Positions 14,703-61,430 of a stretch of 64,000 bases of DNA are shown in pieces. Both the position numbers and the translations under genes were made by a program. The notes beneath the pieces were generated by a model. That model was not told the origin of the DNA and made no database searches. It saw only the letters and a program-made list of their open reading frames with translations. The stretch is from an uncultured bacterium. Lineage in GTDB: Bacteria > Patescibacteriota > Minisyncoccia > Phycocordibacterales > Phycocordibacteraceae. The DNA lies in the NCBI GenBank assembly GCA_937879955.1, contig CALFMK010000001.1, forward strand, positions 267,766-331,765. Reading direction: 5' to 3'. The stretch's first letter is position 1, and the number at the start of each line of letters is the position of its first letter.

Positions 14703-14880
14703 AGGAAAATAATTCGCGATTGCGGTTTATAAGGAATGACACTGCCCTGTCGTTCGGCCCGATTCCCCTGTCTGAGTTATCCACAGGTCGGGTCCGTGCA
14801 TTGATTTTATAGATTCCGCAGGACACCGCAACGGCCGTAGCCGGGCCGCCCCTCAGAGGCATGCTGCCCATTCCTAATAC

Positions 14881-14914
14881 TTGACATGTATATGTATATA
14901 TGCTATATATACAT
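14881..14914 (+). promoter_or_regulatory. sigma70-like promoter (TTGACA-17-TATATA) overlapping a perfect AT-rich 11-bp inverted repeat (TATGTATATAT-gc-TATATATACATA) in the groES upstream/divergent region
   Basis: read directly; the only AT-rich stretch in a ~68% GC region; lies ~180 nt upstream of groES start on the opposite strand and ~40 nt upstream of the 14951 ORF. Confidence 0.4.
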
Positions 14915-14950
14915 ATAGAAAGAAACCGGCTTATGGGGAGAACCAAGCCA

Positions 14951-15231
14951 TGCTGAACCTTGACCTGCAGACCATCCTGATCGCCATCCTGTTCATCGTG
15001 GGCGCCAGCACCTCGCTCTTCGCGGTCATCCGCTGGACCGCCGCCCTGGACCTGATAGCCGCCTACGCCCTGGTCGGCCTGATCATGGCCTTCCTGGTCG
15101 CTGCGTGCATCCACGAGGGCCGGCCGGGCATGGCCGCGTTCCTCACGGCCGGCTACCTGCTGAGCAGCCTGGTGCTCACTTGGGACTATGCCCGCGAGCA
15201 CGCGCGCCGCCGCCTGGCCCTGGCCGCCTAA
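14951..15231 (+). CDS. small membrane protein (hypothetical, 93 aa, 3 TM)
   Basis: GGGGAG 6-7 nt upstream of ATG at 14951; longer ORF from 14881 would start inside the promoter/palindrome. Confidence 0.45.
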
Positions 15232-15319
15232 CCGTATCGGCAATAGCCGATACCAGCCCCCGGAACCTAGAGTTCCGGGGGCTTTTCATATAGAGGAGAT
15301 TTCCTGCCAGCAAAGGGTT

Positions 15320-15348
15320 TTGCCTTTCCTTCCCCTTTTTGGTAGTAT
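15320..15348 (+). promoter_or_regulatory. sigma70-type promoter for secG (TTGCCT-17 nt-TAGTAT), predicted TSS ~4-5 nt before ATG
   Basis: hexamers and 17-nt spacing read from sequence; no SD before ATG at 15360. Confidence 0.4.
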
Positions 15349-15359
15349 GCGGGGCACAG

Positions 15360-15590
15360 ATGGAGACTCTTTCGGCAGCACTGCCCTACATCCAGATAGC
15401 CCTCTCCCTACTCCTCATCGTAGGTATCGTCCTGCAGAACCGCGGGGCGTCCCTCGGCGGAGCCTTCGGAGGCGATAACTTCGCGTCTACCTTCTACAAG
15501 CGCCGCGGCGCCGAGAAGTTCCTGTTCGACGCGACGATCGTGATCGCTATCCTCTTCGTAGCGTCAGCGGTCGCCGGCATCTTCTACTAA
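15360..15590 (+). CDS. secG: preprotein translocase subunit SecG
   Basis: 76 aa; ..IALSLLLIVGIVLQNRGASLGGAFGG..FASTFYKRRGAEKFL..ATIVIAILF matches SecG pattern; upstream part of the tracked ORF would precede the promoter. Confidence 0.75.
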   Translation: METLSAALPYIQIALSLLLIVGIVLQNRGASLGGAFGGDNFASTFYKRRGAEKFLFDATIVIAILFVASAVAGIFY

Positions 15591-15638
15591 GGGCTCGCGC
15601 GTCGCGCGTCATCTGTATTCCCTATACACCCGTCGCCT

Positions 15639-17342
15639 ATGCGACCCTCTCCCCTCTTTTCTTCATACGCTGACTCTCCGCTCTCGCGGGCGACCTCGTT
15701 CGTACGCAAGCTCTCTCCGGGCGACCGCTTCATTGCGGGCGTACTCAGCCTCTTCGTGCTCGGCACGCTCGTCGCGGGACTCATCGCGCTCGAGCGGACG
15801 TTCCTCGTGACGATCCCTGCCGACGGCGGCAGCCTCACCGAGGGCATCGTCGGGAAGCCGCGCTTCGTGAACCCGCTGCTCGCGCTCACCGACGCGGACC
15901 GCGATCTCGCCGCGCTCACCTACGCGGGACTCATGGGCATCGACGGCGACGGCAACCTCACGCCGGTACTCGCCGAAAGCTATAGCGTCTCTGACGACGG
16001 GACGGTATATACGTTCATCCTGCGCGCAGGCGCGGCGTTCTCGGACGGCACGCCCGTCACCGCGGACGACGTGGTCTTCACCGTCGAGAAGGCGCAGGAC
16101 CCGGCGCTCCGTTCCCCGGAGCTCGCGAACTGGGCGAACATCCGTGCCGAGACTATCGACAGCCGAACGGTCTCGTTCACGCTCCCGAAGCCGTACGCGC
16201 CGTTCCTCGCGGACACCACGCTCGGCATCCTCCCTGCCAACAAGTGGCGGAACGTGCCGGTGGACGAGTTCTCGTTCTCGCCGCTCATGATAGAGCCCGT
16301 GGGCGCCGGACCCTTCACGGTCACGCGCGTCGAGCGCGACAAGGACGGCAGCGTGACCGCCTACGACCTCAAGGCCTCGGAGCGGTACGCCCTCGGCCGT
16401 CCGCATCTCGACCGCATCCGCATCCGCTTCTATGACGACGTATCGGCGCTCGCCGACGCGTACGAGCGCGGCAAGGTCGAGAGCGCGTACGGCATCCCGG
16501 TAGAGGGCGCGCTCAAGGCGCCGTATTCCCGCGTCTTCGGCGCGTTCTTCAACGGCGACGTGAACCCGGTCTTCGCCCATGCGGAGGTGCGCGAGGCGCT
16601 CTCGCTTGCGGTTGACCGTGACCGCATCGTGAACCAGGTGCTCGGCGGGTACGCGACGCCGCTCACGGGACCGGTGCCGCCTGGCTCCGGCATCGAGGAG
16701 CCTGTGCTCCCTGAGGGCGACGGCGTCGCGCTCGCGACCGAGGTGCTCGAGGACGCGGGCTGGAGCCGCGACGAGGAGACGGGCGCCTGGGAGAACGCGG
16801 GCGAGAAGCTGCAGCTTTCGTCCGTGACGCTCAAGACCTCGAACGTCGCGGAGCTGAAGGCGATCGCCGCGTCGATCGAGAGCGACTGGGAGCGCCTCGG
16901 CGTCCCTACCGAGGTGGAGCTGTACGAGCCGGGCGACCTCGCGTCGTCGGTGATACGCCCGCGCGCGTACGAGGTGCTCCTCTTCGGCATGGTGATCGGC
17001 CGGGACCGCGACCTGTTCGCGTTCTGGGACTCCGGCGAGCGCAGCGATCCGGGCCTCAACATCGCCGGCTACGCGAACCGGGCCGTGGACCAGCTCCTCG
17101 AGCGGGTACGCCAGGAGCGCGACCAGGCGGCAGCGCACGAGGACCTGCAGGAGCTCTCGACGCTCATCGCGAACGATTATCCGGCTGCCTTTACGCACGC
17201 ACCGGACTTCCTGTATGCTATCCCTAACAGCGTTCACGGCGTACGCCTCCCCCAGATAGCATCGCCTTCGGACAGGTATGCGACCGTAGCGCAGTGGTAT
17301 AGGAACACGGAAGAAGTGTGGCCCGTATTCGCCCCTCAGTGA
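15639..17342 (+). CDS. ABC transporter substrate-binding protein, family 5 (oligopeptide/nickel-type)
   Basis: 567 aa; N-terminal membrane anchor, SBP_bac_5-like core (..GGSLTEGIVGKPRFVNPL..). Confidence 0.75.
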   Translation: MRPSPLFSSYADSPLSRATSFVRKLSPGDRFIAGVLSLFVLGTLVAGLIALERTFLVTIPADGGSLTEGIVGKPRFVNPLLALTDADRDLAALTYAGLMGIDGDGNLTPVLAESYSVSDDGTVYTFILRAGAAFSDGTPVTADDVVFTVEKAQDPALRSPELANWANIRAETIDSRTVSFTLPKPYAPFLADTTLGILPANKWRNVPVDEFSFSPLMIEPVGAGPFTVTRVERDKDGSVTAYDLKASERYALGRPHLDRIRIRFYDDVSALADAYERGKVESAYGIPVEGALKAPYSRVFGAFFNGDVNPVFAHAEVREALSLAVDRDRIVNQVLGGYATPLTGPVPPGSGIEEPVLPEGDGVALATEVLEDAGWSRDEETGAWENAGEKLQLSSVTLKTSNVAELKAIAASIESDWERLGVPTEVELYEPGDLASSVIRPRAYEVLLFGMVIGRDRDLFAFWDSGERSDPGLNIAGYANRAVDQLLERVRQERDQAAAHEDLQELSTLIANDYPAAFTHAPDFLYAIPNSVHGVRLPQIASPSDRYATVAQWYRNTEEVWPVFAPQ

Positions 17343-17446
17343 TCAGTCGATAGCCCAGAGATCACGGTCTCCTGGCTGCCTAGTGCGCACTGAACCATTT
17401 ACGACATCGTGCGACCGAATTTATCTAGCACCTAACTACTATCATC

Positions 17447-19381
17447 ATGTCAGCAGCACCAGCGCCGGCCCCTGCGCCGAGCCCACGTTCCCAGAAGCCT
17501 GAAGCAAGCGCTCCCTCGCCCCGTTCCGGCGCCCCCCGCGAAGGCGGACGCACGCGCAGCCGCGGCTCTCGCGGCGGACGCGGCAACCGCGGAGGCGCAG
17601 GACGCTCCCAGGGCCGCGGCGGACGCCCTGATTCGCGCCCAATGAACGCGTCCGGCGAGGGCATGCCAGCCAAGCGCGCGCCCGAGTACCTCCCGGCGGC
17701 TCCCGGCAAGGACGTCGTCCGCATCGTGCCGCTCGGCGGCGTCGAGGAGGTGGGACGCAACATGTTCACCGTCGAGACCAACGGCGACATCTTCGTCTTT
17801 GACGTCGGTTTCCAGTTCGTGTCCGAGGACACGCAGCCGGGCGTCGACTACGTCCTCCCGAACACCAAGTACCTCGAGGTGAACAAGGACCGCATCCGCG
17901 GCATCTTCATCACGCACGGCCACCTCGACCACATCGGCGGCATCCCGTTCCTCATGGAGCGCATGGGCAATCCTCCTATCTATACCCAGAACCTCTCCGC
18001 GGTGATGATCAAGAAGCGCCAGGAGGAGTATCCTGACCAGCCCGAGCTCAACGTCGTGACCGTCGACCCGAGCTCGACCATGACCATCGGCTCGACCAAG
18101 GTGCAGTTCTTCCCGGTGACCCACTCGATCCCGGACTCCATGGGCATCGCGATAGAGACCCCGTACGGAAACGTCATCGCCACCGGAGACTTGAAGCTCG
18201 ACCACGAGAACGGCATCCCGACGGAGGCCGAGCAGAAGAAGTGGGGCGCGATCGGCGCGCAGAAGAACCTCTTCTTCATCGCCGACTCCACGAACGCGGA
18301 GCGCGACGGATTCTCCGTCCCTGAGCGCAAGGTGCACGAGACCCTCGAGGACATCATCAAGACCGTGAAGGGCCGCCTCATCATCGGCACCTTCGCCTCG
18401 CAGTTCGAGCGCATGGTCCGCATCATCGAGATCTCCGAGTCCCTCGGCAAGAAGATTGTCACGGAAGGACGCTCGATCAAGACGAATCTCGAGATCGCGC
18501 AGAAGACCGGCCTCCTCAAGGTGAAGAAGGATACGATCATAACGGCCGCAGAGATCGGGGACTACTCGCCGGACAAGATCGTGATCCTCTCGACCGGCGC
18601 CCAGGGTGAGGAGTTCGCGGCGCTCATGCGCATCGCGACCAAGCAGCACAAGTCGATCACGCTCAACGCGCGCGATACCGTGGTGCTCTCGTCCTCGGTC
18701 ATCCCAGGCAACGAGATCGCCGTCCAGCGCCTGAAGGATAACCTGTACCGCAACGGCGTCTCGCTCATCCACTACCGTTCCTCGGACGTGCATTCCACGG
18801 GTCACGGCAACACCGGCGAGCTCATCTGGATCAACCAGAAGGTCAACGCGAAGTTCTTCATGCCGGCGTACGGCTACTACTCGATGACCGCCTCCCACGC
18901 GAAGGCTGTCGAGCAGGCAGGACGCCCGCGCGAATCCATCGTCATCGCGGATAACGGCACCGTCATCGACATCGTCGACGAGGGCACCCGCATGGAGATC
19001 CACAAGCAGAAGGTCCCGTCCGCGCCGCTCGTGGTTGACGGCTTCTCGATCGGCGACATGCAGGAGGTGGTCATCCGCGACCGCCAGATGCTCGCGAAGG
19101 ACGGCATGTTCGTCATCATCGCGACCGTCAACCTGAAGACCGGAAAGCTCCGTAAGTCCCCGGACATCATCTCTCGCGGCTTCGTGTACCTCCGCGAGAA
19201 CCAGGACATGCTCAACCAGGCGCGTCTCCTCATCAAGAAGACCGTGGAGGACGCTACCGAGGGCATGAACCCGGTGGACCTCGACTTCGTGAAGAACGCG
19301 CTCTCGGACACCATGGCCGGATACCTCTTCACGCGCACCAACAAGGCGCCGATGGTCATCCCGGTGCTCATCGGGGTCTAA
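17447..19381 (+). CDS. rnj: ribonuclease J (metallo-beta-lactamase/beta-CASP) with RG/RS-rich disordered N-terminal extension
   Basis: HGHLDHIGG motif, beta-CASP and C-terminal domain; first ~100 aa low-complexity PA/RG-rich. Confidence 0.88.
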   Translation: MSAAPAPAPAPSPRSQKPEASAPSPRSGAPREGGRTRSRGSRGGRGNRGGAGRSQGRGGRPDSRPMNASGEGMPAKRAPEYLPAAPGKDVVRIVPLGGVEEVGRNMFTVETNGDIFVFDVGFQFVSEDTQPGVDYVLPNTKYLEVNKDRIRGIFITHGHLDHIGGIPFLMERMGNPPIYTQNLSAVMIKKRQEEYPDQPELNVVTVDPSSTMTIGSTKVQFFPVTHSIPDSMGIAIETPYGNVIATGDLKLDHENGIPTEAEQKKWGAIGAQKNLFFIADSTNAERDGFSVPERKVHETLEDIIKTVKGRLIIGTFASQFERMVRIIEISESLGKKIVTEGRSIKTNLEIAQKTGLLKVKKDTIITAAEIGDYSPDKIVILSTGAQGEEFAALMRIATKQHKSITLNARDTVVLSSSVIPGNEIAVQRLKDNLYRNGVSLIHYRSSDVHSTGHGNTGELIWINQKVNAKFFMPAYGYYSMTASHAKAVEQAGRPRESIVIADNGTVIDIVDEGTRMEIHKQKVPSAPLVVDGFSIGDMQEVVIRDRQMLAKDGMFVIIATVNLKTGKLRKSPDIISRGFVYLRENQDMLNQARLLIKKTVEDATEGMNPVDLDFVKNALSDTMAGYLFTRTNKAPMVIPVLIGV

Positions 19382-19433: not shown

Positions 19434-20621
19434 TTGTCGCATGAAGGAATGCTAAACTGGTTCGTAATGCATCCGCGCCTCGTCCTTTCCTTCGCGAACT
19501 TCTTCGGAGCCGCGCACTTCTTCCTGATCATCTACGTGATCGCGCCGTACCTCGCGCTCTTCATGCCCGAGAGCCAGACGGGGCTCGTCGTATCCTTCGG
19601 CGCGATCCTCACGCTCCTCGCCTTCCCGTTCATGCCCCGCCTCGTGAAGCGGCATGGCGCGAAGCATCTCGCCATCGCGCTCGCGTTCCTGCAGGGCGTA
19701 TCGATATACGTACTAACCTTCTCGCCGAGCGCGATCTTCGCCGTGCTCTGCGTCGCGATCGCCTGCGCGCTCTCCCCGCTCATCGCGTACCAGCTCGACC
19801 TCCTGCTCGAGGCGGCGACCAACGAGGAGGGGTCCACGGGACGCATACGCACCCTCTTCCTCACGGCAGGCAACGCGGCGCTCATATTCACGCCCCTCAT
19901 CATCGGGTATCTCCTCGACGGCACCGAGGCCTATGCGCGCATCTTCCTCGCCGCATCCCTCTCCCTCATGCCGTTCATCGTCCTGCTCATGTTCGAGCGC
20001 CTCCCTGAGGGAGAGCCGCCGAGCCTGACCGGCGTACGGTCCACCTGCTTCTGCCTCTGGCGGGATCCTGACCTGCGCGCTGCCGCCTTCGGGAACGGCG
20101 TCCTCCAGTTCTTCTATCATCTCGCGCCGCTCTACATACCCCTCTACCTGCATACGGCGCTCGGCTTCGCCTGGAGCGACCTGGGCTGGGTCTTCGCCGT
20201 CATGCTGCTGCCGTTCGTGTTCGTGGAGTATCCGGCAGGCGTGATTGCGGACCGCTGGCTCGGCGACAAGGAGCTCATGATTGCTGGCTTCGTTATAACC
20301 GGGCTCGCGTTCGGGTCCATCGCGTTCATAACGTCGAGCACGCCGCTCATTGTTGTCGCACTTATCCTGTTTGTTTCCCGCATCGGTGCGGCGCTCTCTG
20401 AGGCCATGATCGAGGGGCACTTCTTCAGGCGTGTCTCTGAAAAGGACGCGAATACCATCTCAGTCTTCCGCATGATGCGCCCGGTTGGGGCGCTCGTGGC
20501 GCCGGTCTTCGCGAGCGTACTGCTCGTCGCAGGAAACTACACCGGATTCTTCCAGGTATCAGGCGCACTTGTGGTTGCGCTCGGGATTCTCGTTACGATC
20601 CCGCTTAAGGATGTACGCTGA
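19434..20621 (+). CDS. MFS transporter
   Basis: 395 aa, 12 predicted TM helices, MFS-like loop motifs. Confidence 0.75.
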   Translation: MSHEGMLNWFVMHPRLVLSFANFFGAAHFFLIIYVIAPYLALFMPESQTGLVVSFGAILTLLAFPFMPRLVKRHGAKHLAIALAFLQGVSIYVLTFSPSAIFAVLCVAIACALSPLIAYQLDLLLEAATNEEGSTGRIRTLFLTAGNAALIFTPLIIGYLLDGTEAYARIFLAASLSLMPFIVLLMFERLPEGEPPSLTGVRSTCFCLWRDPDLRAAAFGNGVLQFFYHLAPLYIPLYLHTALGFAWSDLGWVFAVMLLPFVFVEYPAGVIADRWLGDKELMIAGFVITGLAFGSIAFITSSTPLIVVALILFVSRIGAALSEAMIEGHFFRRVSEKDANTISVFRMMRPVGALVAPVFASVLLVAGNYTGFFQVSGALVVALGILVTIPLKDVR

Positions 20622-20658
20622 AGATTAGAGATAACTTGTGCCAAGTAACCTCTAATGC

Positions 20659-21390
20659 TTAGTCATAGATAGGTGCAGGATACCTAGCATGAAGAATCTC
20701 GTACTGACTTGTGCGCGGCTTCCTCACTGCATAGAAAGCGTACTGTTTACCAATCTCCAGCTCTTGACCCAACTGATTATTCATCAGAAGCGTTCCTGAG
20801 ACAGGTTGAGATATGAGTTCGCTGTACGTTATTTTAATTTTGTAGCGCTGACCTAATTTACCCTCATCTTCTTCCAATTTCTCGACAACTACACCATTGA
20901 AGGAAACCAGACTCGATAAAGACCTCGTGTCATACGCATCGTATTCTTTATCATAGACAGCCGCATAGGGATGGCCGGTTCCGACTTTTCCAAACCGAAA
21001 TCCGCGGTTAACAAGAATACGTGTTCTTCCTTGAAGATCACCTTTGTAGGATCTTCTGATGTCCACTTCATAAAGTTCAGTATCTTCTGAGGGGTCTTCC
21101 TTTTTCTCTACGATAGTCGCGCTGAAAACGTATATCTGGTCCACTGGAGGAAATACCGGTTCAGATATTTTATCCTCTGCGCTTTTTACAATCGGTATTT
21201 GAGGTGCCTGAGCCACCGGCAATTCTATGCTGTCTTTTACCTCTGTCTGCTGCCCTGGCGTATCTTGAGGCGGATTCAATATAAATAGCGCGGTATCAAA
21301 ATGCAGTGTAGATATAGCCATTACAAATGCCACCGCAGTAGCAGTAATGTCAACTATAGACCAGCTAATACTCGATATTAATCCTTGCAT
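20659..21390 (-). CDS. hypothetical secreted/membrane-anchored protein on a low-GC insert
   Basis: 243-aa ORF with N-terminal hydrophobic helix; local GC ~45% vs ~68% flanks. Confidence 0.45.
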   Translation of the reverse strand: MQGLISSISWSIVDITATAVAFVMAISTLHFDTALFILNPPQDTPGQQTEVKDSIELPVAQAPQIPIVKSAEDKISEPVFPPVDQIYVFSATIVEKKEDPSEDTELYEVDIRRSYKGDLQGRTRILVNRGFRFGKVGTGHPYAAVYDKEYDAYDTRSLSSLVSFNGVVVEKLEEDEGKLGQRYKIKITYSELISQPVSGTLLMNNQLGQELEIGKQYAFYAVRKPRTSQYEILHARYPAPIYD

Positions 21391-21489
21391 GAATTTATTA
21401 TAAGGTTTGCAAGAAGATTATAATTTACTGAGTTAAAATAATTCTGAAGAAGACACTCCTTGAATGGGGTTTTGTTCTGGTTGTAGTGG

Positions 21490-22299
21490 TTAGAGTGGAA
21501 GTCGATACCTACCTCGCCTCTTCTCAACCAGACCCTCAGAAGCCAACTTTGCGAGCATAGCACTAACCTGCTCGCTCCGATCAGGTCCAAGTATTCCCTC
21601 CAGATACGTTTCGGTCTGCGGACCCTTCGCGAGTGCCTTCAAAATAGCACCCCGCGCCTCTCTCCCAGATCCCGTGAACGCAGCCTGCTTCGCATAGCCC
21701 TTGCTCTTCGCATTCACACGGATACCAGAGCGCTTCAGATGCGCACCATAGTCCATGAGCGCCGAGTACCAGCGCCGTGAATCCCCTTCCGGCAGCGCCT
21801 TCTCCAGTATCGAAAGCACCTCCTTATCATCGACCTTCTCCGCGTTCGGGAAGAAGTGATGGATAACGGCGGTACGCAGGTTCGTCTCCACGAACACGAC
21901 ATCCTTGTTGCCAGCGAACGCCGCTACCGCGCGTGCCGTATAGTGCCCGACGCCAGGCAGGGTCTCGAGCGTCTCTACGGACACAGGCATCTTTCCCTTA
22001 TGCTCACGCACCACGGTCTTCGCCGCCTCGTGCAGCATCTTCGCCCGGCGGTTATATCCGAGCCCCTGCCAATGGAGCAGTACGGACGAGAGTGGCGCCT
22101 CAGCGAGCGCGCTCACGGTTGGGAACGATTCGAGAAAGGCGCGATAGAACGGAATGACCCGCTCCACCTGCGTCTGCTGCAGCATCACTTCGGACACGAG
22201 GATGCGGTACGCATCCTTCGTCTTCCTCCAGGGAAGGTCATGACGCCCCTGCGCCTCGTAGTGCGCGAGGGCGAGGTCCCTAAACCGTTTCGCTGTCAT
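21490..22299 (-). CDS. HhH-GPD superfamily DNA glycosylase (MutY/Nth-like core without Fe-S cysteines) with C-terminal winged-helix-like domain
   Basis: 269 aa; helix-hairpin-helix LPGVGHYTARAV followed by catalytic-Asp region; no Cys-X6-C-X2-C-X5-C cluster. Confidence 0.7.
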   Translation of the reverse strand: MTAKRFRDLALAHYEAQGRHDLPWRKTKDAYRILVSEVMLQQTQVERVIPFYRAFLESFPTVSALAEAPLSSVLLHWQGLGYNRRAKMLHEAAKTVVREHKGKMPVSVETLETLPGVGHYTARAVAAFAGNKDVVFVETNLRTAVIHHFFPNAEKVDDKEVLSILEKALPEGDSRRWYSALMDYGAHLKRSGIRVNAKSKGYAKQAAFTGSGREARGAILKALAKGPQTETYLEGILGPDRSEQVSAMLAKLASEGLVEKRRGRYRLPL

Positions 22300-25207: not shown

Positions 25208-25612
25208 ATGCATATGGAACCTATACATAAGACCGAAGAGGAGTGGAGGGAGGCGCTGAGCCCTGAGGAATACCGGGTCCTGCGCGAGGCGGGCACCGAA
25301 GCCGCGTTTGCCGGGAAGTACGTCGACAACCACGAGGACGGCACGTATCGCTGCCGCGCCTGCCACGCCGTGCTCTTCGGATCGGACACGAAGTTCGATT
25401 CCGGCAGCGGCTGGCCGTCCTTCACGGACCCGAAGGTTGCCGAGAACGTCGGGACCCGTCCGGATGACAGCCATGGCATGCACCGCACGGAGGTCTTCTG
25501 CAAGAACTGCGGCAGCCATCTGGGCCACGTCTTCGACGACGGACCGGAGGATGCGGGCGGCAAGCGGTACTGCATCAACTCCATCGCGCTCGATTTCGAG
25601 AAAGAGACCTAG
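25208..25612 (+). CDS. msrB: peptide-methionine (R)-S-oxide reductase MsrB
   Basis: 134 aa; SelR motifs GTY.C..C...LF.S..KFDSG.GWPSF, RTEV.C..CG.HLGHVF.DG. Confidence 0.92.
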   Translation: MHMEPIHKTEEEWREALSPEEYRVLREAGTEAAFAGKYVDNHEDGTYRCRACHAVLFGSDTKFDSGSGWPSFTDPKVAENVGTRPDDSHGMHRTEVFCKNCGSHLGHVFDDGPEDAGGKRYCINSIALDFEKET

Positions 25613-25680
25613 CCTCTTCATGAGGCCTCCATGCTCGGGAGCGTAGGATTGCCGCATACCCGGCTAACCTGATTTTGCCT

Positions 25681-25806
25681 ATGGCTGATACAGACGAGAT
25701 GCGCGAGGAGGCTGAACGCAAGCGCCGCGAGGCGGAAGAGGACGCACGCAAGCTCGAAGATGCCGCTGACGCTGCTGATGAGGCGAACGACGAAGCAGGG
25801 TCATAG
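25681..25806 (+). CDS. small acidic protein (41 aa, hypothetical)
   Basis: MADTDEMREEAERKRREAEEDARKLEDAADAADEANDEAGS; below the 60-aa ORF-track cutoff; no clear SD. Confidence 0.2.
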   Translation: MADTDEMREEAERKRREAEEDARKLEDAADAADEANDEAGS

Positions 25807-25857
25807 CCGCACGAATGACAGGAGGCCCGCCACTATACGTGACGGGCCTCTATCGTT

Positions 25858-26349
25858 TCATTGGTCAATCGGTTGCACCATATCCTTGGTTCGCTCGACG
25901 GACGACTTCTTGCCCATCGATCGATACGCGACTCGATCATGTTCCGAACAGTACGGTCCAGAGCCGGATCGCCGGCCGCAGAATGTGAAGCCGTCCGATT
26001 CAGGATCGCCGATCGGCCACTTGCACATATGCGCGCCGAGCGTAAGCAACGTCGCCGCACCCGGCTCTTCCTCGCGAGGCACGTGGGGCTCTGCCTCCGG
26101 CTCCGCAGGGACGGCACGCCGCGTCGCCCGAGGCCGCGTCGTCGCAGCAGGGCGAGACGGGCGCGGAGCCTTGAAGGCTGGCCGGGCCGGCTGCGACGGG
26201 CTCGGCCGACCGCTCAGGCCGAGACGATGCACCTTGCCGATGACCGCGCTGCGGGTCACCCCGCCGAGCTGCCGCGCGACCTGGCTGGCAGACAAGCCTT
26301 CAAGCCACAGCTTCTTTAAGGTAGAGATACGTTCTTCTGACCAATCCAT
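25858..26349 (-). CDS. gcrA: GcrA family cell-cycle regulator homolog
   Basis: start at MDWSEERISTLKKLWLEGLSASQVARQLGGVTRSAVIGKVHRLGLSGR (GcrA N-terminal HTH-like domain), C-terminal CKWPIGDP..FTFCG..GPYCSEH..AY; TATAGT -10 box and GGAGGA 7 nt upstream of ATG. Confidence 0.8.
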   Translation of the reverse strand: MDWSEERISTLKKLWLEGLSASQVARQLGGVTRSAVIGKVHRLGLSGRPSPSQPARPAFKAPRPSRPAATTRPRATRRAVPAEPEAEPHVPREEEPGAATLLTLGAHMCKWPIGDPESDGFTFCGRRSGSGPYCSEHDRVAYRSMGKKSSVERTKDMVQPIDQ

Positions 26350-26541
26350 CTGACTATCCTCCAAAATACACCTACCTGCGGGCACTATACGCCCGAACCT
26401 AGCAATGCGTCCATCCCCAGGAAACCTCCCCCGATTCGAGGGTGTTCTAGGGGATAGAGGGAATCAGGACCTTGAAAGACGATCGATGCGGGACGCTCTG
26501 CGCCTCCCTATCCGTGCGCCTTATCCGTTCATGACCTGCCT

Positions 26542-26769
26542 ATGGCAATCACGAAAGCTATCGGGCTCGGCATCGGTATCATCGTCCTCAAGCTGCTGCT
26601 TCCCGGCGTTCTGTCAGAGATCGAGCAGACCGCTATCGCATTCCTCGATGGAGCGCAGGCCGGAGCCAACGTCGCTTCCTCGCTCGCCACTTCCGCAGGA
26701 GACATCCGGTTCTCGAACGAGCCGTTCGTCCTCCCGCAGGCGCCCCTGCCAGGCACCATGGTGCGATAG
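26542..26769 (+). CDS. small hydrophobic protein (hypothetical, 75 aa)
   Basis: ORF ends 8 nt before a strong intrinsic terminator; overlapping 140-aa ORF in another frame reads through that terminator and was rejected. Confidence 0.35.
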   Translation: MAITKAIGLGIGIIVLKLLLPGVLSEIEQTAIAFLDGAQAGANVASSLATSAGDIRFSNEPFVLPQAPLPGTMVR

Positions 26770-26776
26770 CAAAATG

Positions 26777-26806
26777 AGCCGGATTCCTTGGGATCCGGCT
26801 TTTTAT
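26777..26806 (+). terminator. intrinsic terminator (GAGCCGGAUUCC-uug-GGAUCCGGCU + UUUUUAUU)
   Basis: read directly. Confidence 0.7.
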
Positions 26807-26834
26807 TCATGCGCGCAGGACGAATGAGCTAGCA

Positions 26835-27386
26835 CTAATCGAAGATTGCACTTCCACAACTCTCTATTATCACCAACTGACCCGTACTCTGGTTAAGCTC
26901 TAGAGACCAGACCTGGATTGGAGTGAGGCCATTGTTTACATAAGGGCAGTCTTCCTTTCTCGCAGGATAGTGGGCACCCTCACGAACATACCAAGCGCTA
27001 CCTGATCCGGTAGAACTCGCAGACCCTAAAGTAAATGACGAAGGGATATCTGCGTCTCTTCTGCCACGAAAGAAGCAATGTTGCTTTCCAATGATAACCG
27101 CATCTTCATTAGTATAGAGACCGGTATCTCCCGTGGGAGCGAGCGAGGTTCTCTCATTAACAGATGAACGACAGTTATCTGGACCCAGATAAAAACCCTT
27201 ATCGGTTATCGATCCAGGAACGGCACGCGGATCTTTAACTTCTTCGTTTTTTTGTGGTGGTACTGGCTTCTTAGTTAACAAATCTTCGGATGACCTAGAT
27301 TCGTGTACTTGATCGGATTGAGTTGCAGCAATCGGTACATCTGGTGCCACTACCGTATGATGAAAAAAGCCGAACGATAGAACCAA
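26835..27386 (-). CDS. hypothetical protein on low-GC insert
   Basis: 183-aa ORF; local GC ~47%; no recognisable domain. Confidence 0.4.
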   Translation of the reverse strand: MVLSFGFFHHTVVAPDVPIAATQSDQVHESRSSEDLLTKKPVPPQKNEEVKDPRAVPGSITDKGFYLGPDNCRSSVNERTSLAPTGDTGLYTNEDAVIIGKQHCFFRGRRDADIPSSFTLGSASSTGSGSAWYVREGAHYPARKEDCPYVNNGLTPIQVWSLELNQSTGQLVIIESCGSAIFD

Positions 27387-27468
27387 TGCTGCTGTCGCCC
27401 CCCAATATGCCTTGCCAAAGGGTCAGAAGAGATTCCATATCTTTATATTAACCCCTAAGACTTTAGGA

Positions 27469-27879
27469 CTAGGGCTCGAACCGATTCGTCCCCTCCTCTT
27501 CCCGCTCGTTCACTCCGTGCTCCGGCAACCCGAAGTAATGCCCCACCTCGTGCCAGATGGTCTCACGCACTACGATCCGCACCGCATCCCTGAACGAGCG
27601 ATCCATCTCCTCGGCCTCCTCGATGATCGGGAGGCGGTAGAGGGTTATGGTGTCAGGAAGCGTCACGCCCACGCCGTACTCGCTTCCCCGCTCGGTTAAG
27701 GGAATGCCACGATAGAGACCAAGCAGGGTCTCCCCTTCCTCGAGCCCTTCGAGCTCTCGTATCTCGTCGTCGATGTCGTCCTCGATGAGGAGCGCGACGT
27801 TGTCGACCTTGCGCGAGAAGCGCTCCGGTATGCGGTTCCATTCGCCGATGGCGATCTGCTCGAATTCCTGCTCGCTCAT
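27469..27879 (-). CDS. zincin-like metallopeptidase family protein (DUF1025-type, HEVGHYFG motif)
   Basis: start at MSEQEFEQ; acidic protein with single HExxH (TIWHEVGHYFGL). Confidence 0.6.
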   Translation of the reverse strand: MSEQEFEQIAIGEWNRIPERFSRKVDNVALLIEDDIDDEIRELEGLEEGETLLGLYRGIPLTERGSEYGVGVTLPDTITLYRLPIIEEAEEMDRSFRDAVRIVVRETIWHEVGHYFGLPEHGVNEREEEGTNRFEP

Positions 27880-27886
27880 GCGTGCA

Positions 27887-28423
27887 CTATAGCCTGCGAC
27901 TGTCATAGGCCCAATGTAGGAGCGCCTGGCGCTGGCGCGTATGGCAGGTAGCGTCGCCCGCGCGGCACGCGTTCTTCACCTGCGCCACGTGACGCACCAT
28001 CTGCTTCCAGCGCCTTATCTGGCGCGCATCCTCGGCCGGGATCCTCCGGCCGGAATAATACCGGCAGTACCACTGGAACCAGCCTCGCGGGTCTTCGTCA
28101 TAGATCCAGCCCTTCGCGCGCCACACGGACAGGGGCTGCGACGCGTCTACGCCGAAATAGTTGAGGGACTTGTCATGCCGTTCCGGGGAGAGCTTGGCAT
28201 GCGTGAACCAGTCCTCCGGGAATTCCCCGCGGCCGTCCGTCATGTATTTCCCGCCGAAGACACCGAGCGCGAGCATCTCCTTTGGCGAGAGGTCCGGCCG
28301 GAACTCCGGGTCGAAGTGCTTGCCCATGGGCTCGGTGCGCAGGTACCGATAGTCCTTCTGCATCAGGTCGTTCACGACGACTTCCGTTGGCGTCATGCCC
28401 CCTATACTAGCAAACCCCGCCAA
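27887..28423 (-). CDS. conserved hypothetical protein (W/Y/R-rich, GWFQWYCRYYSGRR motif)
   Basis: 178-aa ORF, good coding potential, no family recognised by eye. Confidence 0.5.
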   Translation of the reverse strand: MAGFASIGGMTPTEVVVNDLMQKDYRYLRTEPMGKHFDPEFRPDLSPKEMLALGVFGGKYMTDGRGEFPEDWFTHAKLSPERHDKSLNYFGVDASQPLSVWRAKGWIYDEDPRGWFQWYCRYYSGRRIPAEDARQIRRWKQMVRHVAQVKNACRAGDATCHTRQRQALLHWAYDSRRL

Positions 28424-31228: not shown

Positions 31229-33019
31229 CTAGGACGAGCGCTTGCTCTTCGCACGATCGGTCTCGGTGAGACCCTGCTTGCGGAGGCGGACCGAGACCGG
31301 GGTGATCTCGAGGTACTCGTCCTCGGCCATGACCTCGAGGCCGCGCTCGATGGTGAGCGTGTAGGCCGGGAAGAGGTTGATCGCCTCGTCGTTGCCCGAG
31401 GAGCGGACGTTCGATTGGTTCTTCCCCTTGGTAGGATTGACCACCATCTCCTCGCCCTTCGAGGTGTTGCCCACGACCATGCCCTCGTACACCTCCGTCG
31501 CCGGGACGATGTAGAGCACGCCGCGCTCCTGCATGCTCCAGAGCGCGTAGCCGAGCGCCTTGCCGGTCGCCATGGAGATCATGGAGCCCACCTGGCGCTT
31601 CTTGATCTCGCCCGCGTACGGCTTGAAGCCGATGACACGCGACGAGAGGATGCCTTCGCCCTTCGTGTCCACCACGAACTGGTTGCGGTAGCCGAGGAGT
31701 CCGCGGGTAGGGCCCTCGAGCGTGAGGCGGACGGTGTCGCCCTCCTGCACGAGGTTCTGGAGCACGAACGCGCGGGTGCCGAGGCGCTCGATGATGGCGC
31801 CCTGGTACTCGGTCGGGGTGTCGATGATGACCTCCTCGAACGGCTCGTGCTTCACGCCGTCGATCTCCTGGATGATGACCTGCGGCTGGGAGACCTGCAT
31901 TTCGTAGCCCGCGCGGCGCATGTTCTCGAGGAGGATGGCGATGTGGAGCTCGCCGCGGCCGGAGACCTTGAAGGCGTCAGGCGAGACGAAGTCCACCTTG
32001 AGGCCCACGTTCACCTCGAGCTCGCGCTCGAGGTACTCGCGGAGCTGGCGGCTCGTCACGTACTTGCCCTCGCGGCCCGCGAACGGCGAGTTGTTGACGA
32101 GGAAGTTCACGGTGATCGTCGGCTCGTCGATCGCGATGGCTGGCATCGGCTCGACGGCGGCGTCGGTGGTGACGGTCTCGCCGATGTACGCGTCCTCGAT
32201 GCCAGCGACGATCACGATGTCTCCGGCGATCGCCTCGGGCACGTCGACGCGCTCGACGCCCTTGAAGGTGAAGAGCTTGGTGATCTTCGCGTTTCGGCTC
32301 GCGCCGTCCGGCTTCTTCACGATGACGGTCTGCCCTGCCTTCACGGAGCCCTCGTACACGCGCGCGATGGCGAGGCGTCCGAGGAAGTTGTCGTAGGCGA
32401 GGTTGAAGGTCTGGAGCTTGAGCGGCTTCGCGACGGCGTCCTCGGTCGCTGCTGGCGGCACCTGCTCGAGGATCACGTCGAGGAGCGGCGTGAGGTCCTT
32501 GCGCTCGTCATCGAGCTTGCGCATCGCGACGCCCTCGCGGCCGATCGCGTAGACCGTCGTGAAGTCGGACTGCTCGTCGGAGGCGCCGAGTTCGAGGAAG
32601 AGCTCGAGGACCTGGTCCTCCGCGCGCGCCGGGTCCGCCGCCGGTTTGTCGATCTTGTTGAGCACCACGATAGGCTTCAGGCCGAGCTCGAGGGACTTCT
32701 TGAGCACGAAGCGGGTCTGCGGCATCGGGCCCTCCTGCGCATCCACGATGAGGAGCACGGAGTCGATCGAGCGGAGCACGCGCTCCACCTCCGATCCGAA
32801 ATCGGAGTGTCCCGGGGTGTCCACGATGTTGATCTTGGTGCCCTTGTACTCGATTGAGGTGTTCTTCGAGTAGATGGTGATGCCGCGCTCGTGCTCGAGC
32901 GCGTTCGAGTCCATGGAGACGCCCTCGGCGGCTGCTCCCGTCTGCTTCATGATGGCATCGGTCAGCGTGGTCTTGCCGTGGTCCACGTGCGCGATGATGG
33001 CGATGTTTCGGATTTCCAT
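31229..33019 (-). CDS. typA: translational GTPase TypA/BipA
   Basis: 596 aa; MEIRNIAIIAHVDHGKTTL.., G-domain plus BipA C-terminal domain. Confidence 0.95.
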   Translation of the reverse strand: MEIRNIAIIAHVDHGKTTLTDAIMKQTGAAAEGVSMDSNALEHERGITIYSKNTSIEYKGTKINIVDTPGHSDFGSEVERVLRSIDSVLLIVDAQEGPMPQTRFVLKKSLELGLKPIVVLNKIDKPAADPARAEDQVLELFLELGASDEQSDFTTVYAIGREGVAMRKLDDERKDLTPLLDVILEQVPPAATEDAVAKPLKLQTFNLAYDNFLGRLAIARVYEGSVKAGQTVIVKKPDGASRNAKITKLFTFKGVERVDVPEAIAGDIVIVAGIEDAYIGETVTTDAAVEPMPAIAIDEPTITVNFLVNNSPFAGREGKYVTSRQLREYLERELEVNVGLKVDFVSPDAFKVSGRGELHIAILLENMRRAGYEMQVSQPQVIIQEIDGVKHEPFEEVIIDTPTEYQGAIIERLGTRAFVLQNLVQEGDTVRLTLEGPTRGLLGYRNQFVVDTKGEGILSSRVIGFKPYAGEIKKRQVGSMISMATGKALGYALWSMQERGVLYIVPATEVYEGMVVGNTSKGEEMVVNPTKGKNQSNVRSSGNDEAINLFPAYTLTIERGLEVMAEDEYLEITPVSVRLRKQGLTETDRAKSKRSS

Positions 33020-55930: not shown

Positions 55931-56247
55931 GAAGTAACTGTAGCCCAGCTCTTTTACTTTTCTTGAAGGGGGGGGTGTTAATAGCGAATAGCTCACGAGC
56001 CTTGAAAGGTTTATGTCTTTACCATGCGGAACTTTACAGTCGCCGACAGATCAGTGACACAAGTACGCTTTAAGACTCCGTATCAGATACCTGCCCAGAC
56101 GCCTGAAAACGCCGAGCTCTCAACAATGCTGGCCGTCTCGTGTTAGAACCCTGGTCGGTCAAGCCCTGCTTAGTCCGTTTAGCTCCCTTCTAGGTTATCG
56201 AAACGACGCGTCTCGTGCGCTTCAAAAAGTGACAAAAGTGACAGTCC

Positions 56248-56835
56248 CTAGGCTTCATCAATATACTTCTCCAGCATTCTCTTTTTGGCCGCCTCAAGAG
56301 CTTCTGGAGTTGTAAGGATCTCAGGATAACGATAAATCATTCCTCCCTTTGAACGATCGAAAGCTCTTAGGTACTGATCTAGGTAAATCTGAGGGTTTAT
56401 ATAAATTACACCTCCCTCCTTCTTCCAGCCTTCGGACATATCGAAGTTATAGCCGATTTCGTGTCCTGCAACATTGAGCCAGCGATGAGCGATTACATTT
56501 CGCCATTCGTGTATTTCTGAAGCTATTGTTGAGAACTTCTTATCATCAGGATCACCGTCCATATCCATGTAGATCTGAACAAACTTCCTGTATCCCTTTT
56601 GACCGTCTTTTCCAAAAAAGCCATGAGAAATAGTAAGGGCAACTGAATGCACTCCTAGAAACATCAGTGACGTCTGACGATTATTTGGATTATCGAAAGT
56701 CGCTGCGATTTCATTATTAAAGAAATTTTGTATGGAGCCTAGTAGAGACTCAATTATTTCGACAGGTTCACTTTTCTGGAATCGATCCGTTCTATGCTCC
56801 CTGGTCTCATTCATATGCGCGTTGTTTTGAGACAT
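56248..56835 (-). CDS. HEPN-like domain protein (Abi_2/AbiD-like RNxxAH motif), putative RNase effector
   Basis: motif SEIHEWRNVIAHRW (R-x4-H with N after R); last gene of a five-gene operon; ~40% GC. Confidence 0.4.
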   Translation of the reverse strand: MSQNNAHMNETREHRTDRFQKSEPVEIIESLLGSIQNFFNNEIAATFDNPNNRQTSLMFLGVHSVALTISHGFFGKDGQKGYRKFVQIYMDMDGDPDDKKFSTIASEIHEWRNVIAHRWLNVAGHEIGYNFDMSEGWKKEGGVIYINPQIYLDQYLRAFDRSKGGMIYRYPEILTTPEALEAAKKRMLEKYIDEA

Positions 56836-56840
56836 ATGTT

Positions 56841-57404
56841 TTATTGATAAACGCAAAGTCCATTGATTATCGGATTAATGACACTGTATATCTGCCAGAT
56901 AAATAGTGAGATCAGCGCTCCGTAAGTGAGGAGGACGAGCCATGAATGCTTGTTGCCGTTCATTTCCTTAAACAACGGGATCATCCCTTTCTGTCGCCAC
57001 TCCTCTTTTGCTTGCTTGTCTCCAAACAGTTCCTTGTACAGAGATCGCACAAACTGCACCCCGATGTAAATGAAACCGAAGCCAACGAGCGTCATTAGTG
57101 AGTCGTTAGCTACCCTATCCACTTCTGGAAGTCCGCAATATGATTGCCCGATAAACAGAATGAAGCTCAACCCAACGCTCGCTACCAATAGCGAACGAAA
57201 GACGCTGTATCCGGCGACAAACCAAAGCGCCGAAAAGAAAATACCAAATACGACTACGAACATCACTGGCGTGACTGCCGAAAGGAACTGTGTGTTGATC
57301 AGGAAGAACGTCGCCAGGGCAACTGCCATTAGAAAAATTAGGAAGGTCTTTTGGTTCTTTCCTTCTATCCCCAGTTTTTGTAAGAACCTCTTGAACCACC
57401 CCAT
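56841..57404 (-). CDS. 4-TM membrane protein (hypothetical), operon with TIR/SLATT-like genes
   Basis: 187 aa; 4-nt gap to upstream gene. Confidence 0.5.
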   Translation of the reverse strand: MGWFKRFLQKLGIEGKNQKTFLIFLMAVALATFFLINTQFLSAVTPVMFVVVFGIFFSALWFVAGYSVFRSLLVASVGLSFILFIGQSYCGLPEVDRVANDSLMTLVGFGFIYIGVQFVRSLYKELFGDKQAKEEWRQKGMIPLFKEMNGNKHSWLVLLTYGALISLFIWQIYSVINPIINGLCVYQ

Positions 57405-57408
57405 GGAT

Positions 57409-58239
57409 CTAGACGAGGGCCATTAACTGCAACATAAACCCTATGGTGATGAGTGTTGCTCCAATCACACCCCACTTTCTCTGCCCAAGACGGTCTTGAA
57501 CTTGAGGTAACTTTAAATTCTCTTCATCTGTACTACCAGACCAGCGAGATAGTCCGAGTCTAATGGCTTCCTTTTTAGAGATAAAAAGACCCTTCGCAAA
57601 AGCGAGACTGCCCAAGAAGGTCAGGGCGAGGCCAAGAATATTCAGGTAACTATCGATACCCACCGGCACTATCATTGGCGGAATATTTCCTGATATGAGA
57701 GACCAGGGAATGACTGAGGCGGCCAGCGCAATGTAAATTGCAATAAAGATTTTAGGGACATGAAGCTCAATATGACTGAATGGCCAATACACCTTCTTAT
57801 CCTCTCCACGCCCAAGCATCTCCCACTCAGTGTCATATAAAGCAAGCGGCAAGCGCTTCTCTATCATGTGAACCACCTTAAACTTCGCACTATTCAACCC
57901 TTTATACGAAGCAATGATTCTGTACCAAAGGTAGCAGACCGTAACGCCTGCAACTGAAGAGGCTGCTAGTATTAGGCCAATCTCTTGCTCGTTTGTCTTG
58001 GTGGCAACAAAACCCAACAGTGCAACAAGTGCAGTATTCAACCCCAGAAAGAATTCGTTCGTTTTTTGTCTACGATCACTGATTTTCTCAGTGGCATTAA
58101 TATAAATTTTGTATTGGTCCAAGAGATGCTCAATGTATCTATCGCCGTACTGCTCGGACGCAGATACAAAGAGCATCTTTTCTACATCTTGCTTTTCCTT
58201 GTTCATATATTTAAGCAAGCTCGCGAATACCCGAGACAA
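57409..58239 (-). CDS. SLATT-like multi-TM putative pore-forming effector protein
   Basis: 276 aa; ~60-aa cytoplasmic N-terminal helix, TM hairpin (FFLGLNTALVALLGFVA / IGLILAASSVAGVTVCYLWYRII), amphipathic region and 3 further TM helices; overlaps or abuts upstream TIR-like gene. Confidence 0.5.
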   Translation of the reverse strand: MSRVFASLLKYMNKEKQDVEKMLFVSASEQYGDRYIEHLLDQYKIYINATEKISDRRQKTNEFFLGLNTALVALLGFVATKTNEQEIGLILAASSVAGVTVCYLWYRIIASYKGLNSAKFKVVHMIEKRLPLALYDTEWEMLGRGEDKKVYWPFSHIELHVPKIFIAIYIALAASVIPWSLISGNIPPMIVPVGIDSYLNILGLALTFLGSLAFAKGLFISKKEAIRLGLSRWSGSTDEENLKLPQVQDRLGQRKWGVIGATLITIGFMLQLMALV

Positions 58240-58618: not shown

Positions 58619-58623
58619 GCAAC

Positions 58624-58995: not shown

Positions 58996-59203
58996 GAGGA
59001 AAGTATGAACTCCTTCCAGGAAAAAGCAAACAACACATTTTAGAAATAATCCAGGAAAACTTTAGATTTTCTTTAGATAATCCTACTTATCCCCTTGCAT
59101 GGAATTCTCATCTTGCTAGGGTTAACTAGTTAACCAAGCTCTGAATACCTGCTGGTAGAAGGTATTCGCAAACGACTAACTTACACAGTTAATATGTTTT
59201 GTC

Positions 59204-61280: not shown

Positions 61281-61283
61281 TTT

Positions 61284-61430
61284 GTTGTTGGTTCGGTTTT
61301 GTAATTCCCGATGGCCAGATACACAAAAATCCCGCCACCAGGAGGACCCTTACGGGTATCCCTACCTAAGTTTCCCTAGGTAACCGAACCAACGACCCTG
61401 ATGACGGGGTTTTTACGTTGGTTCGGATTT
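61284..61430. repeat. iteron-like short repeats (GTTGGTTCGG x2 direct at 61287 and 61417; inverted copy at 61384) in a 334-bp intergenic region
   Basis: read directly; lies between divergent genes upstream of the integrase module. Confidence 0.35.

Follow-up and report, generated by a model that had tools for sequence, protein, structure and literature searches.

A GcrA-family gene of apparent Caulobacteraceae origin in the variable msrB-Zincin_1 interval of a Paceibacteria genome

The subject of this analysis is a gene of the GcrA family, found at positions 25858 to 26349 of a 64-kb stretch of contig CALFMK010000001.1 from an uncultured bacterium (hereafter, the window). In GcrA proteins, a flexible linker joins an N-terminal DNA-binding domain to a C-terminal CCCH zinc finger that clamps region 2 of the primary sigma factor. 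The gene, its parts and its closest surroundings are given below, where L001 is a second strain of the window species, L003 and L004 are related species, and CPR stands for Candidate Phyla Radiation.

25208..25612, plus strand: msrB (SelR; Pfam SelR matched on the orthologs), conserved as the convergent neighbour of GcrA in all CPR copies found
25675..25806, plus strand: small acidic open reading frame (ORF) of 43 aa, between msrB and GcrA
~25803..26440, no strand: segment present in the window and L001 and absent from L003 and L004, delimited by alignments in which the flanks align
25817..25854, minus strand: GC-rich hairpin right after the GcrA stop codon (-31.9 kcal/mol, z=-5.3 against shuffles)
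25858..26349, minus strand: GcrA-family gene, 163 codons plus stop (Pfam PF07750, PDB 7YE1_G, identity to Caulobacter)
25861..25920, minus strand: residues 144-163, diverged C-terminal tail in place of the basic patch, from alignment to the canonical tail
25921..26070, minus strand: residues 94-143, C-terminal sigma-interaction domain with a CCCH zinc finger (C-X14-C-X9-C-X2-H)
26071..26214, minus strand: residues 46-93, Pro/Ala/Arg-rich linker, the most divergent stretch between the two strains
26215..26349, minus strand: residues 1-45, N-terminal DNA-binding domain, with 13 of 14 C. crescentus DNA contacts kept
26357..26362, minus strand: GGAGGA Shine-Dalgarno (SD)-like sequence, 7 nt upstream of the GcrA ATG, read directly
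26384..26413, minus strand: promoter-like site TGGACG-18 nt-TATAGT, from a sigma-70 consensus scan (9 of 12 matches)
26542..26769, plus strand: small hydrophobic ORF of 75 aa, at the other border of the insertion slot
27469..27906, minus strand: Zincin_1 metallopeptidase-like gene, at the outer border of the variable interval (Pfam PF06262 matched on the orthologs)

The GcrA frame has 164 codons counting the stop, so the protein is 163 residues long and not 164, as stated in a first-pass annotation of this DNA. The N- and C-terminal strings quoted in that annotation as the GcrA layout are found in the ORF as written. Residues 1-150 align with positions 1-153 of the 155 in Pfam profile PF07750 (E=6.9e-55; 186.1 bits, with a cut-off of 26.9). 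The closest solved structure is that of C. crescentus GcrA in an RNA polymerase complex (7YE1 chain G, E=4.4e-67 with phmmer), and the GcrA entries among the PDB matches are 7YE1, 5YIX and 5YIU. Judged by these profile and structure matches, the ORF is a true GcrA homolog and a genuine member of the family. C. crescentus GcrA (PDB 7YE1/7YE2, 5YIX, 5YIU-5YIW, 5Z7I) shares with it the three-part layout and an identical CCCH spacing in the zinc finger, whereas the window linker is shorter.

The TATAGT -10 box and GGAGGA SD sequence that had been reported for the gene are both present, as consensus matches. The hairpin after the stop codon is probably a bidirectional terminator between convergent genes. 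On the msrB side, the acidic ORF is rich in Glu, Ala and Asp, a gene of 41-51 aa is called at the equivalent place in L001, L003, L004 and L134, and it is probably a real small gene. On the other side, the hydrophobic ORF has positional homologs in L134, L148, L105, L003 and L004, and the Zincin_1 gene has tblastn matches in L134, L183 and L148. The wider neighbourhood of GcrA comprises msrB, Zincin_1, DsbA, a DEAD helicase and BipA.

The last of these genes identifies the host. BipA/TypA (31232-33019, minus strand) has at least 120 listed homologs at 87-100% identity, every organism-named one of which belongs to Patescibacteria, Candidatus Paceibacterota, Parcubacteria or Pacebacteria, and one identical protein is encoded on a 591-kb contig. 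Because the organism-named homologs at this level of identity all carry such names, the genome is assigned to Patescibacteria/Paceibacterota; on this evidence, it is a CPR bacterium of Paceibacteria and not an alphaproteobacterium. Thus, the check on housekeeping proteins that the first-pass annotation had proposed places the host outside Alphaproteobacteria, as its impression of the rest of the window had suggested. Several features on which this impression was based hold as well: 4 of 4 tRNA genes in the window lack an encoded CCA, the RNase P RNA is compact (a span of 322 nt), and a pilin-like (type IV) protein with an N_methyl motif is present. RNase J is also present, but its low-complexity RG/PS-rich stretch is N-terminal and is not the tail that had been described. 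In this gene (17447-19381, plus strand), the N-terminal extension covers at least roughly 40 residues rich in Pro, Ser, Arg and Gly (MSAAPAPAPAPSPRSQKPEASAPSPRSGAPREGGRTRSRG...), and the metallo-beta-lactamase domain begins near residue 103, after the extension. As a clue to lineage, which had been offered as one explanation for its presence, GcrA is wrong for phylogenetic placement, although it may be a clue to ecological partners. The window host, a member of Patescibacteria, lacks the alphaproteobacterial context of C. crescentus GcrA and of the GcrA/CcrM module.

The history of the locus can be read by comparison with close relatives. An independent assembly of the window species (L001/L002; Logan assembly SRR14271336, a 52-kb contig) is 94-97% identical to the window at the nucleotide level, has a BipA that is 100% identical, and carries GcrA between the same neighbours. 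The closest species sampled, by BipA identity, are L005 (95%), L003 (94%) and L004 (93%). In these three, GcrA is absent from the msrB-Zincin_1 site and tblastn finds no remnant of it, while the flanking genes persist: all three retain Zincin_1 and the small hydrophobic ORF, L003 and L004 retain the small acidic ORF, and L003 retains msrB. Relative to these species, GcrA is a single-gene insertion of ~0.6 kb between msrB and Zincin_1. The extra segment, ~25803-26440, spans the promoter-like site, the SD sequence, the coding sequence (CDS) and the hairpin, with a left edge that is uncertain by ~75 bp.

An apparent insertion of this kind could in principle be an artefact of assembly or binning, in which an alphaproteobacterial fragment was mis-joined into a CPR contig. 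The closest named relatives are indeed Caulobacter, and the G+C content at third codon positions (GC3) is unlike that of the neighbours. Nevertheless, the junctions are identical in the independent assembly of the same species, the flanking intergenic DNA aligns with relatives up to the edge of the insertion, and the CPR contigs in which GcrA is embedded are syntenic, 52-622 kb long and derived from several projects. Synonymous divergence (dS) between the window and L001 is also similar for the gene and its surroundings (0.28 for GcrA and 0.25 for msrB). The independent syntenic assemblies refute the artefact, whose probability we regard as negligible. Instead, the same placement in L001 and the closeness of the two dS values mean that GcrA was already in the common ancestor of both strains.

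The same interval contains a second insertion, which is strain-specific. It covers 26803-27476 (~670 bp, 46% G+C), where L001 has ~200 bp instead, and holds an ORF of 183 aa (26835-27386, minus strand, GC3 0.38) that matches no Pfam family and has no homolog in the loci fetched. A further strain-variable spot lies at 20614-21505 (G+C 0.52). There, the window has an ORF of 243 aa (20659-21390) with no Pfam match, and L001 has, at its positions 14877-17737, a Peptidase_M43/beta-helix protein of 593 aa and an ORF of 234 aa.

The sequence relatives of the gene point to its source. Among ~8000 homologs, the best matches besides the strain copy are from Caulobacter spp. (72-74% identity), followed by Phenylobacterium and other Caulobacteraceae; in a scan of species-representative genomes, Caulobacter GcrA is 70-74% identical to the window protein. 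A linker motif, RPAATT..RR..AEP, is common to the window protein and Caulobacter sp. UNC279MFTsu5.1, and the window protein matches 2 of 3 Caulobacter-diagnostic states. At the nucleotide level, similarity to alphaproteobacterial gcrA (72-74%) is confined to the CDS and stops at both of its ends. These observations support the entry of GcrA into the Paceibacterota lineage horizontally, from Caulobacteraceae. The suggestion in the first-pass annotation that the gene was horizontally acquired is therefore borne out, by a single-gene insertion absent from the three closest species and nearest outside relatives in Caulobacter (~74%).

The same annotation had added that the gene was possibly phage-derived, that is, a prophage remnant. 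GcrA homologs are common on viral contigs, with 48 viral loci found in IMG/VR, and GcrA-like genes are known from phiCbK-like Caulobacter phages (PMC3556154). Like the window copy, these phage proteins represent the GcrA family outside a cellular alphaproteobacterial chromosome; many have a variable DNA-binding domain and Ser at position 34, the state of the window protein, which 13 of 37 viral homologs share and none of 78 Caulobacterales copies has. However, viral homologs are 28-60% identical to the window protein, and since even the best of them reach only 53-60%, against ~74% for cellular Caulobacter GcrA, a cellular Caulobacteraceae donor appears more likely than a phage. In addition, phage copies sit among phage genes, whereas the window copy is a lone gene between conserved housekeeping genes, in a ~0.6 kb segment without any other phage gene; the sole phage-like element of the window lies at a distance of 30 kb and has a different composition. 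A prophage origin is thus not favoured, and we consider it very unlikely.

Base composition gives some indication of the age of the transfer. GC3 is 0.54-0.82 in the CPR GcrA genes, compared with ~0.91 in the donors, and in lower-GC CPR relatives the GcrA CDS is richer in G+C than its own locus. Together, these two observations indicate that the CPR genes are foreign but not recent.

GcrA is not restricted to the window species. Nine CPR copies are considered here: those of the window, L001, L092, L105, L134, L148, L149, L151 and L183. Two came from Paceibacterota metagenome-assembled genomes (MAGs) returned by the genome scan, namely L092 (CAMTYL010000003.1) and L105 (DATAJW010000013.1), whose proteins are 60% and 62% identical to that of the window. 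A look-up guided by BipA gave L134 (GCA_036405415.1), where the window slot has the order Zincin_1, small ORF, GcrA, 48-aa ORF and msrB. Finally, in a metagenome scan seeded with MsrB, GcrA is convergent to msrB in 4 of the 60 loci whose downstream sequence was long enough (L148, L149, L151 and L183), all on syntenic CPR contigs. In L092, L105, L134, L148, L149, L151 and L183, the gene is downstream of msrB on the opposite strand, and all CPR copies fall within the msrB-Zincin_1 interval, whose cargo otherwise varies by genome (MsrA, NUDIX, a CapA-like gene, glyoxalase and VKOR). Seven of the nine are intact. In the other two, GcrA is split over two frames in the linker (L149:4400-5100) or near residue 32, in the DNA-binding domain (L151:1480-2150); these may be pseudogenes or assembly errors.

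The CPR copies are only 49-67% identical to one another, less than each is to some genus of Caulobacteraceae. The closest genus is Caulobacter for the window copy (74%) and Phenylobacterium for L105 (75-78%, with a shared linker motif PRRIAE.L.AQA...Y.DE.PGSAT). For L134 it is Brevundimonas (54-59%, in a search of 5.8 billion proteins); this copy has the one-residue insertion of Brevundimonas in LGxGxTRN and 7 of 23 Brevundimonas-diagnostic states, compared with 0-3 in the other CPR copies. L151 has 4 of 5 Phenylobacterium-diagnostic states. Two Paceibacterota MAG proteins, HEY0948219.1 and HEX2792350.1, carry the automatic NCBI name 'GcrA family cell cycle regulator [Candidatus Paceibacterota bacterium]'. 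They belong to the same CPR family and msrB-adjacent interval as the window GcrA and are 56-62% identical to it, but they keep Asn at position 34 and a canonical or near-canonical C-terminus (...RRYI/...MRYV), and lean to Phenylobacterium and Brevundimonas and not to Caulobacter. A literature search gave no paper on these two proteins.

The BipA tree places L134 and L105 together as sisters (bootstrap 99.8%, identity 94%), and their GcrA proteins are ~50% identical and in different micro-contexts; the window groups with L005, which lacks GcrA (90% bootstrap). Since sister species have such different proteins, with different donor leanings, it is likely on sequence grounds that acquisition or replacement from different Caulobacteraceae lineages took place at least twice, and probably three times. 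Donors were assigned from best-hit sets, linker motifs, an indel and genus-diagnostic states and not from tree topology. Neighbour-joining (NJ) trees of 87, 38 and 42 sequences were poorly resolved, given a protein of 160 aa, with long CPR branches drawn to viral sequences. Donor-sister relations appear in 47-71% of NJ replicates, and monophyly of the CPR GcrA proteins in 0-1 of 200-500 bootstrap replicates, a figure that reflects low tree resolution and is not strong evidence. As an alternative history, there may have been a single ancient gain followed by strongly accelerated, convergent-looking evolution. Spread among related CPR bacteria by recombination through the conserved flanks is also possible, and would account for the constant locus.

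The functional meaning of these copies can be approached through the residue roles described from structures of C. crescentus GcrA (PMC5887438). In the zinc finger, CKWPIGDPESDGFTFCGRRSGSGPYCSEH, the C-X14-C-X9-C-X2-H spacing is exact and the four ligands are kept in 9 of 9 CPR copies. The contacts to region 2 of sigma-70 that were compared are L113, K119, W120, G123, D124, P125, S126, F130, F132, Y142, V149, A150 and Y151 of C. crescentus; 12 of these 13 are identical in the window protein. The exception is S126, replaced by Glu, at a position that is only 79% conserved in Caulobacterales. Of these residues, W120, G123, D124, P125, F130 and Y142 are retained by all nine CPR copies, and the sigma-contact residues in general are mostly kept.

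For the DNA contacts, identity with C. crescentus is similarly high in the window protein, with 13 of 14 kept (M1, W3, W15, S20, A21, S22, T32, R33, I37, G38, K39, H41 and R42). The sole exception is N34, which is Ser in the window and L001 and Asn in all 78 Caulobacterales copies. This residue makes a base contact and forms the wall of the second methyl pocket for N6-methyladenine (m6A) (PMC5887438), so that the second pocket of the window protein is not intact. The tail has also changed. It reads RSMGKKSSVERTKDMVQPIDQ, where the canonical counterpart is ...KKK..ELARSLRRYI, and the stretch KKSSVERTKDMVQPIDQ has four basic and three acidic residues, so it is near-neutral and does not form the basic patch of C. 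crescentus (residues 157-173, ...ELARSLRRYI). This patch has been proposed to touch the non-template strand of the -10 element (PMC5887438). The window protein lacks the RSLRRYI sequence, which L092, L105, L148 and every alphaproteobacterial copy shown have. A frameshift was considered as the origin of the odd tail and rejected: the other two frames have no SLRRYI, and the tail aligns with the canonical one position by position.

Other CPR copies have larger changes in the DNA-binding domain, at otherwise invariant positions: I37L and H41S in L183, A21C in L092, and S20D and A21V in L149. The most extreme case is L148 (4110-4559, minus strand), where this domain is 38% identical to that of C. 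crescentus, against 65% for the sigma-interaction domain. Here, R33, N34, I37, G38, K39, H41 and R42 are all changed, while the zinc finger and the RSLRRYI tail are intact; from its residues, L148 reads as a natural 'sigma-binding only' variant. The selection common to the CPR copies thus seems to favour sigma binding rather than the reading of methylated DNA.

Selection can also be estimated directly from the two strains of the window species, a single pair, by the NG86 method. The GcrA proteins of the window and L001 are 90% identical, with differences concentrated in the linker (74% nucleotide identity at 26122-26221). The ratio of nonsynonymous to synonymous divergence (dN/dS) is 0.22 overall; it is highest in the linker, at 0.36, and falls to 0.19 and 0.14 in the DNA-binding and sigma-interaction domains, respectively. 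In the C-terminal tail, there are 0 nonsynonymous changes in 20 codons and the two proteins are identical. The overall value indicates that the gene is maintained, under purifying selection.

These values bear on the possibility that GcrA is a neutral passenger, a role-less gene heading to loss in a hot spot between msrB and Zincin_1 that collects foreign DNA. The varied cargo of the interval, including the low-GC ORF unique to the window strain, fits such a history, as do the patchy distribution of GcrA in the informative metagenome loci (4 of 60), the two frameshifted copies and the changes at donor-invariant residues. By contrast, a passenger would hardly show dN/dS of 0.14-0.22 in its folded domains or a novel tail that is unchanged despite a dS of 0.28; seven of nine copies are intact, and all nine retain the zinc ligands and most sigma contacts. 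In addition, the recurrence of one family in the interval across several species is not expected of random capture. We therefore regard a passenger as improbable.

Genome-wide under-representation of GANTC is a signature of Caulobacter. The first-pass annotation had proposed a search for CcrM-like methyltransferases and GANTC sites, and the window was searched for both. The window has 195 GANTC sites, compared with 412 expected under a dinucleotide shuffle and 411, on one strand, under an order-1 Markov model, so that a palindrome counted twice is not the cause of the deficit; the observed/expected (O/E) ratio is 0.86, 0.47, 0.70 and 1.11 at orders 0, 1, 2 and 3, respectively. TCNGA, a control with the same dinucleotides, has an order-1 O/E of 0.47, equal to that of GANTC, and therefore the deficit is compositional and not specific to GANTC. 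In the high-GC3 genome of the window, shuffles that preserve dinucleotides predict too many words composed of GA and TC, and a control of the same composition is needed when such motifs seem depleted. GANTC depletion as a sign of a CcrM system was thus rejected, as it is matched by TCNGA and vanishes at order 0 and order 3; the depletion of YGAKTCG is likewise compositional and not specific.

No CcrM ortholog is found within the 64-kb window. What the search did reveal is one CcrM-like, beta-class methyltransferase, the only N6_N4 methyltransferase of the window (59204-60478), with a ParB-like N-terminus and the motif DPVY. Its best PDB match is CcrM (6PBD, E=5e-15), in the catalytic domain only and without the CcrM C-terminal domain, and its identity to CcrM residues 1-254 is ~28%. 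It lies on a low-GC mobile island, 30 kb from GcrA. Thus, in contrast to the C. crescentus GcrA/CcrM module, neither a CcrM ortholog nor avoidance of GANTC is detected in the window.

Taken as a whole, these data make it probable, though by no means assured, that the window protein is a working cofactor of sigma-A in the CPR cell, with an altered or relaxed reading of m6A-GANTC. On this reading, a single-gene cassette from Caulobacteraceae, which bears a promoter-like site, a ribosome-binding site and a terminator hairpin of its own, entered the hypervariable msrB-Zincin_1 interval. As in Caulobacter, the zinc-finger domain would dock on region 2 of the primary sigma factor, here that of the CPR bacterium, before the promoter is bound, and GcrA would act as a transcription cofactor inside the CPR cell. 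The N-terminal domain would still bind DNA, with its dependence on m6A-GANTC altered or relaxed by N34S, and by the larger changes in other CPR copies. In the window species, loss of the basic patch would remove the proposed contact of the tail with promoter DNA and change the assistance to promoter opening. The behaviour of the protein would then be nearer to that of a general or re-targeted sigma cofactor than to the CcrM-coupled cell-cycle switch of Caulobacter.

A functional analogy for copies with a drifted DNA-binding domain, such as L148, is offered by RbpA, a general sigma-A cofactor of Actinobacteria. RbpA makes contact with the coiled-coil bridge of sigma region 2 that the zinc-finger domain of GcrA also contacts, and stimulates initiation without sequence-specific reading of DNA (PMC5887438). 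The two are unrelated in sequence and fold, and while RbpA is essential in its phylum and passed on vertically, the window GcrA is patchy and acquired.

Several observations weigh against a working sigma-A cofactor. GcrA is absent from most relatives, and the metagenomic copies L149 and L151 are frameshifted, so that the gene is dispensable and in some lineages may be decaying. The estimate of selection comes from one strain pair and ~50 substitutions, and the promoter and SD sequence are putative, as consensus matches only. Window GcrA has a GC3 of 0.72, below both the host (~0.88) and the donors (~0.91), for which no explanation was found, although passage through lower-GC CPR relatives might have produced it. 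Lastly, no primary sigma factor gene came up when the window and the CPR loci were all searched by motif, and a GcrA-binding groove (region 1.2/2.1 and the non-conserved region) on CPR sigma-A is putative.

A different role can be imagined for the same conserved sigma-binding core. Paceibacteria living on or with Caulobacteraceae might repeatedly capture the gcrA of the partner and use its product on the sigma-70 of that partner, for example to compete for sigma with a different reading of DNA, or to match the cell-cycle state of the partner. GcrA would then indicate the range of hosts of the CPR lineage. The GcrAs of different CPR species lean to different Caulobacteraceae genera (window to Caulobacter, L151 to Phenylobacterium, L134 to Brevundimonas), and the sister species L134 and L105 have the ~50% identical proteins mentioned above. 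Furthermore, the best conserved part is the sigma-contact core, which evolved against alphaproteobacterial sigma-70, while the DNA-binding domain is altered in several copies. Nevertheless, the N-terminus, read directly, has no signal peptide or recognisable secretion signal, and there is no adjoining secretion-system gene. No physical or co-occurrence evidence ties these CPR bacteria to Caulobacteraceae, a literature search on Paceibacteria with Caulobacter gave nothing relevant, shared habitat alone could produce the donor affinity, and the GcrA phylogeny is weakly resolved. A product directed at a partner, in either of these two ways, is thus an unlikely explanation.

In its broadest form, the idea would be that a family of soil and freshwater Paceibacteria repeatedly took gcrA from Caulobacteraceae because the donors are its physical partners and a protein that binds sigma-70 is advantageous, which is equally doubtful. 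If it were true, the advantage would lie in interfering with the cell-cycle transcription of the partner, or in coupling the transcription of the epibiont to it. In that case, the host identity of Paceibacteria could for the first time be read from a sequence marker, namely GcrA, and a parasite would have borrowed the master regulator of its host.

Elsewhere in the window, G+C is ~64% up to 54 kb, and drops to ~0.45 (0.64 elsewhere) on the mobile island at about 56000-63300 that holds the methyltransferase. Its features are the following.

57409-58239: 8xMP membrane protein
58211-58618 and 58624-58995: two Thoeris ThsB-type TIR proteins
59204-60478: ParB-like/N6_N4 DNA methyltransferase
60453-61037: Sf6-like small terminase/helix-turn-helix protein
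61344-61466, minus strand: LOOT RNA (Rfam RF03000; 81 bits, with a gathering score of 46)
61922-63241: large serine recombinase

From this content, the island resembles a phage-derived or satellite-like element, here in a CPR genome and equipped with defence genes. The LOOT RNA has a zinc-ribbon-like ORF of 80 aa on one side and the recombinase region on the other, and that it occurs on a mobile element of a CPR bacterium may be informative.

GcrA's conservation across Alphaproteobacteria is extremely high (PMC5887438), and the protein is regarded as one of their hallmarks. A literature search found no publication that pairs it with Patescibacteria, CPR or Parcubacteria, and the present case is thus a known protein family in an unreported and unexpected host lineage, with recurrent, donor-specific copies at one locus. 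To our knowledge, GcrA outside Alphaproteobacteria is otherwise known from their phages. The CPR copies suggest that its sigma-binding module may live on where the alphaproteobacterial cell-cycle circuit is missing, and possibly in the absence of its usual methyltransferase partner, and they provide a natural series in which the DNA-binding domain varies and the sigma-binding core is conserved. The msrB-Zincin_1 interval appears as an integration hot spot, which could serve for studies of regulator acquisition by reduced CPR genomes. Finally, the directional gene flow that the copies suggest, from Caulobacteraceae to a clade of Paceibacteria, would be a testable lead to the partners of these bacteria.

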